Positions 1 to 64,000 of a stretch of DNA of 64,000 nucleotides are shown here, piece after piece. The notes beneath the pieces are model-generated. The model was not told the origin of the DNA. It worked only from the letters and a program-made list of their open reading frames with translations, and did not search any database. Each line of letters opens with the position of its first letter. The stretch's first letter is position 1. Position numbers and translations under genes: made by a program. Location of the stretch: contig JBBUAW010000010.1 in the NCBI GenBank assembly GCA_038058475.1, positions 14,361 to 78,360 on the forward strand, written 5' to 3'. The stretch is from Patescibacteria group bacterium (GTDB taxonomy: Bacteria > Patescibacteriota > Minisyncoccia > Phycocordibacterales > JACOZG01).

Positions 1-1093
1 AGGCCTTTGACCACACTCCCGCTTCCCGGAGATAATTTGTCAGCAAGTGAGCCGAATAAGCAGCTACCCAAATTAAAAAGGGAACAAAATAAAGTAGATT
101 CATTTTGTGTCGATTCGGGCCAAAGAAAAAATGGGCTAGAAATAACGATACGATAACGGCTAGTCCAAAAAGGAATAGGGGGTGAGAACGAGCAAAAGAA
201 CGGAGACGATGCCGCCATTCCACCAAAACAAATAGGATACCAGTCAAAACCAAAACTATAAACGGAAATAGAGTAGTAAACACCTGTAACACTAATTTAA
301 GCCGACTTTCGTTTAAAAAATAACCGAAAAGTGACGATGGGGTCATCGCGGCCGTTGGAGGGAGTAATGGCAATAAATCTAATGGTAAAACTGATGCCAG
401 CGGGCCAAACATCACAAAGAAAAAAGAAAGTGCATATTCTGGGTCAAGCCATAAATAAGGAATTTCCAAGACAAAAATGGCGGCCAAGGAAGAAATTACC
501 GCTAACCCAAAATATCGCCAGCGATAGCGGAGAAGGACAAACAACCATAAGAGAACCAGAGCGGGCAACATATTGTAACGACTTAAAAAAGCCAAGGATA
601 TTGCAACCGCAGACAAAATCACGCGACGACGAATGGGCCAATTTTCAATCTGTAAAAACCAGACGGAGAGGAAGGAGCAAACACCGATCAGGGCGAAAGG
701 GGAAGCGGTAACTAATTTACCCACCACAAAGGGATGGAAAACGAGTAAAGCCAAACCAAACAATCCTAACCACTTTCCGCCAACCCGACGCAGACTGTCA
801 TATAACAAAAAAGCTAAACCCAACAATAAAATTAAGGAGAGCCAGCGGTAAGCCAAAATACTCGGACCGAACCAACCTTGCCACCCGGCCTGAAGATAAA
901 ACGTGACTGGTGGATGTTTTTCTACAAAATCCTGAAATGGATAGGCTAATTTTTCAGCGGTTAGCCACGGTTTATAACTATTAGTGGCTTCGTCAAACCA
1001 AGAATCTTGAAAAATAACATAGTAACCGGCTGACAGTACAAGAATTGCTATCAGTAATCCAAAAACCAGTTTAAAATGTTTTGATGATTCCAT
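1..1093 (-). CDS. Polytopic integral membrane protein, GT-C-like (ArnT/PMT-type) glycosyltransferase candidate. The 3' end runs off the window, so it is partial.
   Basis: I translated the minus strand by hand from ATG at 1093-1091 to position 1 and found no stop. About 364 aa are visible and they are very hydrophobic with many predicted TM helices. A D-E pair in the first periplasmic loop (WFDEATNSYKPW) is reminiscent of GT-C enzymes. The ORF track omits it because the ORF never reaches a stop inside the window. The plus-strand ORFs 331-711 and 633-851 are its antisense. Confidence 0.45.
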   Translation of the reverse strand, partial: MESSKHFKLVFGLLIAILVLSAGYYVIFQDSWFDEATNSYKPWLTAEKLAYPFQDFVEKHPPVTFYLQAGWQGWFGPSILAYRWLSLILLLGLAFLLYDSLRRVGGKWLGLFGLALLVFHPFVVGKLVTASPFALIGVCSFLSVWFLQIENWPIRRRVILSAVAISLAFLSRYNMLPALVLLWLFVLLRYRWRYFGLAVISSLAAIFVLEIPYLWLDPEYALSFFFVMFGPLASVLPLDLLPLLPPTAAMTPSSLFGYFLNESRLKLVLQVFTTLFPFIVLVLTGILFVLVEWRHRLRSFARSHPLFLFGLAVIVSLFLAHFFFGPNRHKMNLLYFVPFLIWVAAYSAHLLTNYLREAGVWSKA

Positions 1094-1099
1094 ATATTA

Positions 1100-1861
1100 T
1101 TAAACGACAATATAGGATTGGTAGGAATTAATCGCCGAACGTCGCAGTTGGTATTGCTTGAGATTTAAAATCTCCTTTACCGCCAATGTTTCGCCGGGAT
1201 ATTCCCTTTTACCCAACTCATCAAAAGCGATAATACTGCCTTTTGTTAAATGAGGTAAAATAGTTTTCAGGCAAACTTTAGTAGGGCGGTAAAGCCCAAA
1301 ATCAAAATAAGCCAAGGCAACAATTGTCTCCGGATGCTTTTTGAAATAATCGGGGACGGTCTTGATGGCATCACCTTTAATCAATTTAAATTTTTTGAGA
1401 TGGCTAATTGGTGACTCTTCCTCGTGATATTGCAAAACTTTTTCCAGATATGATTCGTAACCGGTGCCGACCGCACAACCCAAAGATCCTTCCTCGGCGA
1501 CAATAGAACCGTCTTTGGCATCAATAGAAGAATGGCCGGTAAAAGTATCAAAGCCGATCATTTGCCGCGTATAATTGTATGGCTCATACATCCCCCTGAA
1601 TGATTCAAACAGAGCTAAGTTCTGACCCCAACGTGTTCCAAAATCCAATATAACTCCGTGAACATTGATTATCTGCCGATATAAATCGTGAAGATAGAGG
1701 ATGCGGGATAAGATCTTGCGATTAGCGTAGAGGCCAATATTTTGCAAAATCTCATTGTCCGGTATCGGCGTCCTTTTTAATAATTTGACGAAATTGGCCC
1801 GAATTTCTTTTTCTCGATCGGATTCATGACGCAAGATGATAATTTTATTTTTATTGGGCAT
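1100..1861 (-). CDS. TylF/MycF-family (macrocin-O-methyltransferase-like) SAM-dependent sugar O-methyltransferase.
   Basis: The 253-aa ORF contains GVILDFGTRWGQNL and IGFDTFTG motifs typical of the TylF/NovP family. It is a clear paralog of the 17291-18070 ORF. Confidence 0.6.
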   Translation of the reverse strand: MPNKNKIIILRHESDREKEIRANFVKLLKRTPIPDNEILQNIGLYANRKILSRILYLHDLYRQIINVHGVILDFGTRWGQNLALFESFRGMYEPYNYTRQMIGFDTFTGHSSIDAKDGSIVAEEGSLGCAVGTGYESYLEKVLQYHEEESPISHLKKFKLIKGDAIKTVPDYFKKHPETIVALAYFDFGLYRPTKVCLKTILPHLTKGSIIAFDELGKREYPGETLAVKEILNLKQYQLRRSAINSYQSYIVV

Positions 1862-1900
1862 GACTTAGATATTAATGATACTCTATCATGTTTTTTCGCT

Positions 1901-61895: not shown

Positions 61896-62140
61896 AAGAT
61901 TTTTTTGCTATAATTATATTGATGGTCTCCGGCATCCCCTGGATTATTTTCTTCGTTGCGATTATTGGCTGGTCAATCTTCAGCGTCGTTTTTCTCTTTC
62001 ATTGGCGACACTACAGCCGGCAATCAAAACCAACCATTCTGGCCGAAATGATTTATTTTGTTGTTTCCATCACTTTGATCGGCTTGATTCTCAATACCTT
62101 AAACTGGAAAGAATTTTATTCTATTTTCTTTAATCAATGA
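61886..62140 (+). CDS. Small membrane protein (hypothetical).
   Basis: The 84-aa ORF has two hydrophobic helices and overlaps the following PH-domain gene by 4 nt. Confidence 0.35.
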   Translation: MVLKDFFAIIILMVSGIPWIIFFVAIIGWSIFSVVFLFHWRHYSRQSKPTILAEMIYFVVSITLIGLILNTLNWKEFYSIFFNQ

Positions 62141-62718
62141 TTGATCTAGAACCAAGCGAAATCGTTATCGGCACGGCGCGTAAGCATTGGTTCATTTTCG
62201 TGGTGGAAATATTTTTTATTTTGGCGGCGGCAGTCATTCCCCTATTGATTGTTTTCTTTTTCGCCGACACGTTGGAACAATTTGTTCTGGAGCCGCTGAA
62301 AATCAAGAATCTTGATCAATCGCTTTTGCTTTTTGGTTATTGGCTGTGGCTGCTCATTTTATGGATCGTGATGGCTCTAATTTGGACTGATTATTATCTT
62401 GATGTCTGGTACCTGACCAATCAGAGAATCATTGCTGTTGAGCAACGTGGATTATTTCACCGGAAAATTTCCACTTTCCGGCTGGAAATGATTCAAGATA
62501 CGACGATTGAAATCCCGGGCATTTTGGCGACATTGATCGGTTACGGTAATCTGCAAATCCAAACCGCCGGCCAAAACGAAAAATTCACTATCAGAGGCGT
62601 CAATCGGCCACAGCGAGTTAATGAGATTATCACCAGAGAGTACCATCGCGCGCGTGAGGCTTTGCGTGAAGTGCGAATAGCGGCAGATAATTCGACGGAG
62701 AAAAGCGAGTGGAAATAA
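62137..62718 (+). CDS. Bacterial PH-domain (bPH_2, YdbT-like) membrane protein.
   Basis: It has N-terminal TM helices followed by a YdbT-like segment YYLDVWYLTNQRIIAVEQRGLFHRKISTFRLEMIQD. Confidence 0.5.
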   Translation: MIDLEPSEIVIGTARKHWFIFVVEIFFILAAAVIPLLIVFFFADTLEQFVLEPLKIKNLDQSLLLFGYWLWLLILWIVMALIWTDYYLDVWYLTNQRIIAVEQRGLFHRKISTFRLEMIQDTTIEIPGILATLIGYGNLQIQTAGQNEKFTIRGVNRPQRVNEIITREYHRAREALREVRIAADNSTEKSEWK

Positions 62719-62729
62719 AAAATAAAAGA

Positions 62730-64000
62730 TCAACTAGCCAGTACTAATTTTTGTCTGGCAAATACCTTTCGTATTTCTTCAACAAGAACAATCAATATTG
62801 CTACTGGTACGATTACCATCCAGTCAGAAAGGTTAAGTGGGACGGTTTTTAGGAAAATATTCATCACCGGCGTATAGATGGCGAGAAGTTGAAGTGTGAT
62901 GACCGTTACCGTTGCCCATACTAAATATTTATTAGAAAATGGATTCATCCTGAAAATAGACTTATTGTCAGATCGACAATTCCAAGCATTAAACCACTGG
63001 AATGCGGCGAGAACGGTAAGGGATATTGTCCATGCTTTTGCCAAGTCCGCTTCGTAATAATTCTTGAAAAGAAAGAGTGTACCGATAGCCATCGCTAGGG
63101 ACATAAATACCATTCTTTTTGCCATTAATTTATCTACGAGATATTTGTTCGGCTTTTCAAATTTTCCGTCAAGCAAGTGTCTTTCCTTGGGTTCCATGGC
63201 GAGTGACACATCAAGAAAACCGTCGGTGACGAAATTCAGCCAGATAATCTGCGCGGCTAATATTGGCAAAGGAAAACCTAACACCAGCGCACCGATGATA
63301 GTAAAAACTTCGCCCATGCTCGTTGAAAAAAGATACAAAATAACTTTCTTGATGGTTTTATAAATACTGCGACCTTCTTCAATAGCCGAAACGATACTTT
63401 CCAAGTTGTCGTCCAAGAGGACTATGTCCGAAGCTTCTTTTGCCACTTCAGTACCAATTTTACCCATAGAAACTCCAAGGTCAGCTGCAACAAGCGAAGG
63501 CGCGTCATTTACCCCGTCTCCGGTCATAGCCACTATTTCTCCGCGAGCCCGATACGCCCCGATGATTCTCATCTTATGTTCCGGATTCACTCGAGCAAAT
63601 ACCGAAACAGTTTTGAGTTGGTCTCTTAAATCTGCATCAGACATATCATCAATCTCTCCTCCAGTGAGTACTCGGTCGCCCTCACGCCAAATACCAATTT
63701 CTTTAGCTATCGCTTGAGCAGTTATCCTGTGATCGCCGGTGATCATCACCACTTTCATTCCGGCCATTTCCGCTTTCTTTATGGCCGATGTCGCCTCCGG
63801 CCTTGTTGCATCTCTCATTCCGTAAAAACCGACGAAAGAGAGATTCCGTATTTTTTCCTGCTTGAGTGTTTTGCCTGCGTTTGGATCAATGGCAAAAGCC
63901 ACAACACGCAATCCCTCTTGTGACATTGTGTAAAAAATTGACTCGAGATTTTTCCGTTCCTCATTTGTGAGAGTTTTCTGTTTGTCGTCGGACCAGATGG
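62730..64000 (-). CDS. P-type cation-transporting ATPase (Ca2+/Mg2+ PMCA/SERCA-like). The C-terminal portion is in the window and the N-terminus lies beyond it.
   Basis: It has VMITGDHRITAQAIA and MTGDGVNDAPSLVAADLGVSMG hinge motifs and the C-terminal TM helices. The reading frame stays open past 63926 to the window edge. Confidence 0.8.
   Translation of the reverse strand, partial: IWSDDKQKTLTNEERKNLESIFYTMSQEGLRVVAFAIDPNAGKTLKQEKIRNLSFVGFYGMRDATRPEATSAIKKAEMAGMKVVMITGDHRITAQAIAKEIGIWREGDRVLTGGEIDDMSDADLRDQLKTVSVFARVNPEHKMRIIGAYRARGEIVAMTGDGVNDAPSLVAADLGVSMGKIGTEVAKEASDIVLLDDNLESIVSAIEEGRSIYKTIKKVILYLFSTSMGEVFTIIGALVLGFPLPILAAQIIWLNFVTDGFLDVSLAMEPKERHLLDGKFEKPNKYLVDKLMAKRMVFMSLAMAIGTLFLFKNYYEADLAKAWTISLTVLAAFQWFNAWNCRSDNKSIFRMNPFSNKYLVWATVTVITLQLLAIYTPVMNIFLKTVPLNLSDWMVIVPVAILIVLVEEIRKVFARQKLVLAS

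Follow-up and report, generated by a model that had tools for sequence, protein, structure and literature searches.

The window, as the whole 64,000-nucleotide (nt) stretch analysed here is called, is chromosomal DNA of a member of the Paceibacterota (Patescibacteria, or Candidate Phyla Radiation, CPR) from Hainich groundwater. Its 61 open reading frames (ORFs) were screened against Pfam, and selected proteins were also compared with NCBIfam. Glycan genes fill positions 1 to 53.4 kb and continue for at least 8.9 kb to the left, so that a single dense glycan locus of at least 62 kb is present. A non-glycan flank follows on the right. An earlier note on this DNA, made from the letters alone, had described the locus as a mosaic of AT-rich and GC-rich blocks and had correctly named much of its gene content (gmd, CE4, methyltransferase and glycosyltransferase genes; fba, ychF, ung and tRNAs in the flank). 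Here we describe this mosaic and its probable history.

The mean GC content of the whole window is 42.1%. Likelihood-ratio segmentation of the G+C track, with 200 shuffles of 30-nt chunks as the null, placed breakpoints at 14196, 22654, 28305, 41640, 45976 and 52916. The seven resulting segments (S1 to S7) have GC contents of, in order, 41.6, 37.0, 46.3, 38.2, 51.8, 39.9 and 46.9%. The block structure is real: the top split has a log-likelihood ratio of 176, against a maximum of 23 in the 200 shuffles. Five of the six breakpoints fall within 0.05–0.5 kb of the boundaries proposed previously. The remaining one had been placed at 47.5 kb, about 1.5 kb from the segmentation breakpoint at 45,976; comparison with orthologs of GC content at third codon positions (GC3) supports 47.5 kb, which is the limit used for S5 and S6 below. 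The direction of the contrast between blocks was also as described, but its size had been exaggerated by 1–5 points. The intervals said to be 33–38% GC average 37.2, 38.5 and 38.8%, and those said to be 48–55% average 46.0, 50.2 and 48.0%, with a dip to 41% inside the 53.4–62 kb interval. The first 14.4 kb (41.4% GC), which had gone unmentioned, are likewise glycan DNA. The features of the window are as follows.

Segment S1, 1..14196, 41.6% GC
1-1093, minus strand: PMT_2-like glycosyltransferase, partial, seen in assembly locus L004
then, by Pfam: methyltransferase-like protein and GNAT
2994-4544, minus strand: AMP-ligase (Pfam)
then, by Pfam: GH57-like, SDR, KduI-like, CE4 and methyltransferase genes
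9512-10903, minus strand: TagF-like transferase
10925-11908, plus strand: PseB, above its NCBIfam cut-off
11869-13020, plus strand: PseC, above its NCBIfam cut-off
between PseC and the next gene: methyltransferase
13636-14430, plus strand: CMP-sugar cytidylyltransferase
Segment S2, 14197..22654, 37.0% GC, the most atypical block
14422-22462: ten-gene cassette lying within the pse operon, with the cytidylyltransferase gene on one side and pseI on the other
start of the cassette: DUF4910/DUF2172 peptidase-like protein, AAC(3)-like N-acetyltransferase, CmcI and TylF methyltransferases
18080-19690, minus strand: AMP-ligase
about 19674-19910, minus strand: carrier protein of 78 amino acids (aa)
between the carrier protein and the next gene: 2-hydroxyacid dehydrogenase and class I/II aminotransferase
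22097-22462, minus strand: AcpS-type phosphopantetheinyl transferase (PPTase)
Segment S3, 22655..28305, 46.3% GC
22541-23692, plus strand: PseI, above its NCBIfam cut-off
after PseI: DUF218 protein and formyltransferase
25008-25048, minus strand: relic of a PPTase 5' end (direct repeat D3, BLASTP)
25035-26819, minus strand: carbamoyltransferase
26907-27683, plus strand: HisF-like WbuZ
27680-28339, plus strand: HisH-like protein, above its NCBIfam cut-off
Segment S4, 28306..41640, 38.2% GC
28364-29608, plus strand: WbuX N-acetyl sugar amidotransferase
29624-31429, plus strand: carbamoyltransferase
31416-32819, plus strand: GDSL protein
32816-34132: protein of 412-438 aa without family assignment
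34041-35831, minus strand: ABC exporter, fused transmembrane and nucleotide-binding domains (TMD-NBD)
35828-37231, minus strand: TagF/BFO_1060-like protein
between this and the next gene: P-loop protein
37883-39112, minus strand: GT4
39097-40050, minus strand: Fcl-like GDP-fucose synthase
40020-40790, minus strand: protein with only a sub-threshold methyltransferase match
40753-41919, plus strand: GT4, holding the 41.6 kb boundary
Segment S5, 41641..47502, 51.8% GC to 45976, then 46-47% to 47502, host-like
41916-42956, plus strand: gmd
42946-43842, plus strand: CE4
43839-44603, plus strand: methyltransferase
44619-45674, minus strand: GT4
45671-46882, minus strand: GT-like protein of 403 aa
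46864-47502, minus strand: methyltransferase
Segment S6, 47503..52916, AT-rich, about 39% GC
47492-51683, minus strand: four GT4-type genes
51729-52385, plus strand: hypothetical gene
52386-53384, plus strand: PD40-repeat gene, most of it in S6
Segment S7, the non-glycan flank, 52917..64000, 46.9% GC
53399-55048, minus strand: TraG/TrwB-like P-loop ATPase, at the island edge
then: DUF4015 protein, class II fructose-bisphosphate aldolase (Fba), PfkB kinase and YchF
59854-60007: tRNA-Ala and tRNA-Val
59981-61157, minus strand: FemAB-family gene, split
61065-61220: tRNA-Pro and tRNA-Ala
then: uracil-DNA glycosylase, bPH_2 protein and P-type ATPase (partial)

Three enzymes of pseudaminic acid synthesis exceed their NCBIfam cut-offs: PseB (433.4 bits, cut-off 407.75), PseC (455.9 bits, cut-off 423.5) and PseI (356.6 bits, cut-off 340.25). 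The CTP_transf_3 cytidylyltransferase, a putative PseF, scores below any equivalog cut-off. PseH may be supplied by the GNAT or the AAC(3)-like acetyltransferase, and no PseG was recognised in the Pfam and NCBIfam scans. Also present are genes for acetamidino chemistry (a WbuX-type amidotransferase with HisH-like and HisF-like partners) and an acyl module composed of AMP-ligase, the 78-aa carrier, the AcpS-type PPTase, 2-hydroxyacid dehydrogenase and aminotransferase. Further tailoring would be provided by two carbamoyltransferases, a formyltransferase, several methyltransferases and two CE4 deacetylases. For assembly and export we identified gmd and the Fcl-like reductase, eight GT4-type genes, two TagF/BFO_1060-like genes and the fused ABC exporter. 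Neither Wzx nor Wzy was recognised. The window contains no Pfam family of WecA/WbaP-type initiating phosphoglycosyl transferases; a PMT_2-like protein is present, and LPG_synthase_TM occurs to the left of the window. One predicted ORF of 126 aa (331-711, plus strand) is spurious, as it lies antisense within the PMT_2-like gene that runs off the window start.

From these family matches, the locus probably makes CMP-pseudaminic acid that would carry acetamidino, N-acyl, carbamoyl, formyl and methyl groups, and a GDP-6-deoxyhexose would form a second sugar branch. The GT4-type transferases would join these sugars and the ABC transporter would export the product. The 8.9 kb to the left of the window (L004 10769-20762, 44.7% GC) encode PMT_2-like, GT2 and GT4 proteins, an epimerase and LPG_synthase_TM, together with a second NeuB, a NeuC-type UDP-GlcNAc 2-epimerase and a second cytidylyltransferase, and this stretch amounts to a predicted second nonulosonic acid pathway in the locus. 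The contig runs on for another 4.9 kb past the part covered here.

The native composition of the organism is best judged from the 19.3 kb of non-glycan flank, which has 47–48% GC. A search with Fba returned 61 related loci, nearly all of them in metagenome-assembled genomes (MAGs) of Patescibacteria/Paceibacterota. The loci of the eight closest relatives (Fba 70–88% identical) have a local GC content of 46–50%; more distant Fba-matched relatives span 33–57%, and Paceibacterota with 33–40% GC exist. The native value near 50% suggested previously is thus roughly right, although little sequence lies behind the figure. Against this background the AT-rich blocks are atypical at all three codon positions: genes of S2 and S4 have about 46–47, 33–35 and 33–34% GC at first, second and third positions (GC1, GC2 and GC3), versus 55, 39 and 52% in the flank. 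Tetranucleotide usage, which is no more than supportive since the 19-kb reference is small and gene content differs, correlates with that of the flank at 0.64–0.87 for the AT-rich pieces and at 0.86–0.90 for S3 and S5, compared with 0.82–0.96 within the flank. The AT-rich blocks therefore deviate in this measure also, and the GC-rich blocks come close to the native signature.

The window was compared with four related contigs: DATECC010000024.1, from a soil MAG (GCA_036516635.1) and the closest of them, and loci L094, L096 and L098. The closest relative is collinear with the window from ychF across the right junction and back to 32.8 kb (i.e., over the glycan genes of 32.8–53.4 kb), except for the adjacent CE4 and methyltransferase genes next to gmd. 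Its GC content falls at the same junction, from about 50% to 39–43%. Flank proteins of the two organisms are 81–88% identical (Fba 88%), as are the products of gmd and the Fcl-like gene (both 87%). The other glycan proteins are 40–79% identical, and one P-loop protein is 33% identical. Genes of S4 have orthologs in the same order (65–87% identity), with a GC3 of 0.41–0.59 there compared with 0.30–0.37 here. Orthologs of S6 also occur in the same order and next to the same flank, with 40–78% identity, and gmd lies between the same two GT4 genes. The CE4-methyltransferase pair has another location in the closest relative, and the copies there are AT-rich and 50–57% identical. It adjoins gmd both here and in L094, a contig of uniform composition (45.5% GC) with the same gmd-CE4-methyltransferase arrangement, and overall the pair is 50–61% identical to the copies in relatives.

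Modules of the locus stand in other orders elsewhere. L096 (50% GC) carries the S2 cassette with the same internal order and 66–80% identity (for the DUF4910 gene, only the last 121 codons lie within the locus compared). There the cassette is directly upstream of a contiguous pseB-pseC-pseF-pseI cluster, whereas here it separates pseF from pseI. L098 (45% GC) has eight of the ten S2 genes (69–88% identity, 42–44% GC) beside HisF, HisH and WbuX genes in yet another order. CmcI has no match in L098, and the carrier protein was left out of that comparison. L098 also joins the homolog of the 32816-34132 protein directly to WbuX, without the intervening carbamoyltransferase and GDSL genes. Adjacent genes can have different nearest relatives: the ABC exporter is 72% identical to its counterpart in L094 and 65% to that in the closest relative, and for its two neighbours the ranking is reversed (73 versus 65% and 67 versus 38% for the closest relative and L094, respectively). 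For gmd, PseI and the ABC exporter, every named top hit is from Patescibacteria, and the best PseI hits are at most 70% identical. In seven relatives at 70–78% there is no island in the 0.9–10 kb covered beyond fba, but the junction genes are missing there too. Judged from gene order, the shared junction and the differing arrangement of modules across relatives show the locus to be a clade-level feature, built from modules that have been reordered between genomes. Modules of the locus recur in at least four related contigs, and exchange among related Paceibacterota is possible.

One further trace of rearrangement is the PPTase relic within S3. It comprises 14 codons, with 13 of 14 residues identical to the start of the PPTase gene at 22462, and its own start is 14 nt before the carbamoyltransferase stop codon. 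The relic is likely a recombination scar, and it looks like the trace of a past rearrangement that parted the carbamoyltransferase gene from the acyl-carrier cassette.

The orthologs allow the direction of the compositional shift to be read. In codon-aligned pairs, the GC3 of the window minus that of the relative is -0.15 to -0.16 for S4, -0.11 to -0.23 for S2, -0.11 to -0.23 for S1, -0.10 for S6 and -0.05 for the flank, compared with +0.03 for S5 (gmd, two glycosyltransferases and the methyltransferase) and +0.05 to +0.15 for the CE4-methyltransferase pair. Along 41.55–47.5 kb, GC3 exceeds that of the closest relative by about 0 to 0.24. The AT-rich blocks have a GC3 that is 0.10–0.23 below that of the orthologs in each of the four relatives. 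The GC3 of gmd is 0.57 both here and in the closest relative; that of pseI is 0.43, and pseI, pseB and pseC, which share L096 as nearest relative (70–75% identity), are shifted by -0.21 to -0.25 relative to it. On the evidence of these alignments, the AT-rich blocks are the derived, odd state and the gmd block has host composition.

Changes at first and second codon positions relative to the third have ratios of 0.27–0.36 and 0.11–0.27, close to the equilibrium slopes of 0.36 and 0.16. All three positions have thus moved in about the proportions expected at equilibrium, and the shift is therefore old. In Muto-Osawa/Lawrence-Ochman regressions GC3 seemed ahead of GC1 and GC2, but the ortholog-controlled version gave the equilibrium ratios. 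That version indicates neither amelioration in progress nor recent decay, and it cannot separate import from drift in situ.

The source of the sequence is a metagenome co-assembly of low coverage (5–7×), in which chimeric joins, or mis-binning of contigs from organisms of differing GC content, could produce a mosaic of this kind. We consider such an artefact exceedingly improbable. By exact-protein look-ups, the same DNA was found in contig CAYIXA010000002.1 (92,411 bp; MAG GCA_964367425.1) and in several single-sample assemblies from Hainich well H43. These assemblies derive from 0.1 and 0.2 µm filters and from different replicates and assemblers, and run-level Logan assemblies are also available. 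Each of the seven junctions checked by BLASTN (the six breakpoints and 47.5 kb) is crossed by at least one independent ENA or Logan assembly at 99.87–100% identity, several of them by single contigs of 56–76 kb. Coverage, as given in contig names, is 5–7× for most island and flank contigs alike (4× for one short flank contig), and the gene order recurs in a soil organism distinct from this one. To the extent that independent assemblies can reveal it, the joins are not artefactual, and chimeric assembly was rejected.

A second strain with the same locus was found in sample ERZ1292638, in loci L082 (window 27883-40004) and L012 (window 56993-64000). It differs by 16 mismatches in 12.1 kb of the island (about 0.13%) and by 10 in 7.0 kb of the flank, so strain-level diversity is equal inside and outside the island.

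In line with the earlier note, no gene for an integrase or transposase was identified by Pfam in the 61 ORFs, and intergenic gaps, all of about 250 nt or less, leave no room for hidden mobility genes. There are no direct repeats at the junctions; the only repeats are paralog similarities and the PPTase relic. The Rfam scan of the window found four tRNAs only, and these lie at 59.9–61.2 kb, at least 6.5 kb from the island edge at about 53 kb. No similarity to phage DNA was detected, and plasmid DNA gave four matches only, of 77–251 nt (1–3% of the query), in common gene families. Atypical composition, a trait of genomic islands, is present (37–40% GC in the AT-rich blocks versus 47–48% in the flank), whereas the closest relative has the locus at the same site. 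Nucleotide-sugar genes, several glycosyltransferases and an exporter do occur in one cluster, and the GC content of this cluster is below that of the genome and divided into segments. The locus thus lacks the defining features of a classical mobile genomic island and has most of those of a polysaccharide locus.

Two observations concern the flank itself. The TraG/TrwB-like ATPase at the island edge is 96–100% identical to its counterpart in the closest relative over about 250 residues (especially at 54.0–54.8 kb), compared with 81–88% for neighbouring housekeeping genes. The FemAB-family gene is split into two ORFs by a (CT)8 run at 60715-60730, and the same holds for the NCBI MAG contig and one ENA assembly. 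In four other assemblies from Hainich the run is (CT)6 and the gene, of 347–390 aa, is intact. Slipped-strand switching of a cell-wall cross-bridge enzyme on and off could account for the difference, as could an assembly slip at low coverage. In the 8.7 kb beyond the right end of the window, ddl and a two-component system are encoded.

We propose that the GC mosaic would record differing compositional histories of the modules. The gmd block and, less clearly, the block of pseI and the amidino genes would be resident and of host composition. S2, S4 and S6 (S1 more mildly) look long equilibrated at about 37% GC, and would most likely have entered by homologous recombination, the donor being an unsampled member of the same clade with lower GC content. 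Such an event would be a serotype-switch-like replacement within a conserved locus frame, without insertion of a mobile element and without import from outside the phylum. That the AT-rich modules were exchanged within the clade in this way, around a resident gmd block, is a statement for and against which we see evenly balanced chances. In its favour, the GC3 deficit follows the blocks regardless of divergence, and adjacent genes have different nearest relatives in a locus where shuffling is demonstrated and a likely scar remains. Several results weigh against it. Searches with the ABC exporter and PseI proteins and a metagenome scan with the AMP-ligase found no AT-rich donor, the best contigs all having 43–55% GC, and the closest known homologs of the AT-rich blocks (65–88% identity) are all in contigs of that range. 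The low-GC Paceibacterota found are distant (Fba at most 61% identical). Proteins of the AT-rich blocks average 70–73% identity to the closest relative and are no more diverged than the S5 glycosyltransferases (58–79%); import from a distant lineage would predict greater divergence. The glycosyltransferase genes adjoining the junction are AT-richer than the flank in the closest relative too, so that both organisms have part of the contrast in common, and this part could be intrinsic. GC3 change points within genes, which might mark crossovers, were nominal in five cases (p 0.006–0.04) among about 50 tests and not significant after correction for multiple testing, and none was found within the GT4 gene that holds the 41.6 kb boundary. 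Finally, the genome-wide GC content of this organism is estimated from the 19 kb flank alone.

Some of these results lend weight to decay in place. According to this explanation the locus was inherited vertically, and its variable, weakly constrained genes have a lower GC equilibrium than the core because of AT-biased mutation with weaker selection, or because divergent alleles rarely recombine and so undergo less GC-biased gene conversion. The effect would be amplified in this groundwater lineage, and the gmd block would be GC-rich through constraint or gene conversion from relatives. We regard this as a substantial minority possibility. The locus has its site and gene order in common with that of the closest relative, the GC content of every sampled ortholog is higher, which places the shift on this branch, and no AT-rich donor was found in 5.8 billion proteins. 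Besides the similarity of the AT-block proteins to the closest relative and the milder dip of the same glycosyltransferase genes there, the flank itself is 5 GC3 points below that relative, and at 85% protein identity synonymous sites are probably saturated, which would have left time to re-equilibrate. Shifts do not track divergence as this explanation would lead one to expect, however: the 87%-identical Fcl-like protein and WbuX (87% to L098) are encoded by shifted genes, whereas glycosyltransferases at 44.6–46.9 kb that are 76–79% identical are unshifted. S5 is slightly GC-richer than in the closest relative while even the core is poorer, and neighbouring genes have different nearest relatives. 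The narrower claim that low GC arose in place in a vertically inherited locus, with no AT-rich donor at any stage, we rate only slightly lower, again as a minority possibility. The earlier note had read most of the glycan genes as horizontally acquired, in an island of O-antigen or capsule type, with the GC-rich gmd and pseI segments imported separately. The composition is indeed atypical and block-wise, mosaics of this sort in Salmonella rfb clusters are classically read in this way (PMC3715488), and the CE4-methyltransferase pair, divergent and unusually GC-rich, may be separately sourced. Import of a foreign island is nevertheless improbable, given that the closest relative has the locus and its right junction, that 32.8–53.4 kb is collinear there, that all named best hits are from Patescibacteria and that the junction is without tRNA, integrase or repeats. 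A separate source is contradicted for gmd and unsupported for pseI. The former diverges from its syntenic ortholog as housekeeping genes do and has the same GC3, which indicates that it is resident; pseI matches pseB and pseC in nearest relative, identity level and GC3 shift.

Replacement of modules within the clade, the reading we prefer, and decay in place can be distinguished in principle, as orthologous modules of host-like GC content exist in relatives and provide a clean test of whether low GC was imported or evolved in place. If the latter were true, the locus would be a dated natural example of AT-rich surface-polysaccharide genes that owe their composition to a region-specific GC equilibrium (from weak selection or an absence of GC-biased gene conversion) and not to foreign origin. 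As a phenomenon the mosaic is ordinary: polysaccharide loci with blocks of differing GC content are textbook material. The present case is noteworthy for its ultra-small groundwater CPR host, for the size of the locus and for the heavily tailored pseudaminic acid pathway; in the searchable literature we found no link between pseudaminic acid and Patescibacteria. Typical Hainich Patescibacteria genomes are 0.66–0.88 Mb (PMC11188291, PMC8672522), and if this range is assumed, a glycan locus of at least 62 kb would take up about a tenth of the genome.

Loci for pseudaminic acid are known from the flagellin glycosylation islands of Campylobacter and Helicobacter. As in those islands, the window encodes PseB, PseC and PseI equivalogs, a cytidylyltransferase, acetamidino genes and many tailoring genes. 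Unlike them, it adds a GDP-fucose branch, eight GT4-type genes and an ABC exporter, and PseG and PseH are without a confident match. Pfam scans found no flagellin or flagellar genes and no Maf-type transferases among the ORFs of the window or in its 8.9 kb and 8.7 kb extensions. The combination of pse genes, GDP-fucose branch, eight GT4-type genes and ABC exporter suggests a polymer or cell-surface glycoconjugate, not flagellin decoration. Capsule or serotype switching by homologous replacement in a conserved locus frame is exemplified by pneumococcal cps. The window resembles cps in its conserved flank, in internal conserved genes as possible crossover sites, in exchange between related lineages and in adjacent genes with different nearest relatives. 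It differs in that no donor allele was found, in the depth of divergence (65–88% protein identity, not a recent strain-level switch) and in the second aquifer strain, which keeps the same locus.

The closest parallel to the mosaic itself is the rfb clusters of Salmonella enterica, in which Reeves and co-workers described segments of differing, mostly low GC content; glycosyltransferase, wzx and wzy genes there have 28–37% GC, and sugar-pathway genes are intermediate or at the genome average (PMC3715488). In both systems nucleotide-sugar, glycosyltransferase and export genes form one locus at a fixed chromosomal site, with segments of differing GC content mostly below the genome average and without mobile-element genes. 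Glycosyltransferase and processing genes have the lowest GC content and some sugar-pathway genes are at the genome average. The host of the window locus is, however, a CPR bacterium, and no outer membrane is expected in these organisms. Its locus relies on an ABC transporter for export, neither Wzx nor Wzy having been recognised, and is far larger, at least 62 kb compared with about 10–20 kb for rfb. A further difference from rfb is that the orthologous modules in relatives of the Hainich organism are not AT-rich, and the shift can therefore be dated to this branch.

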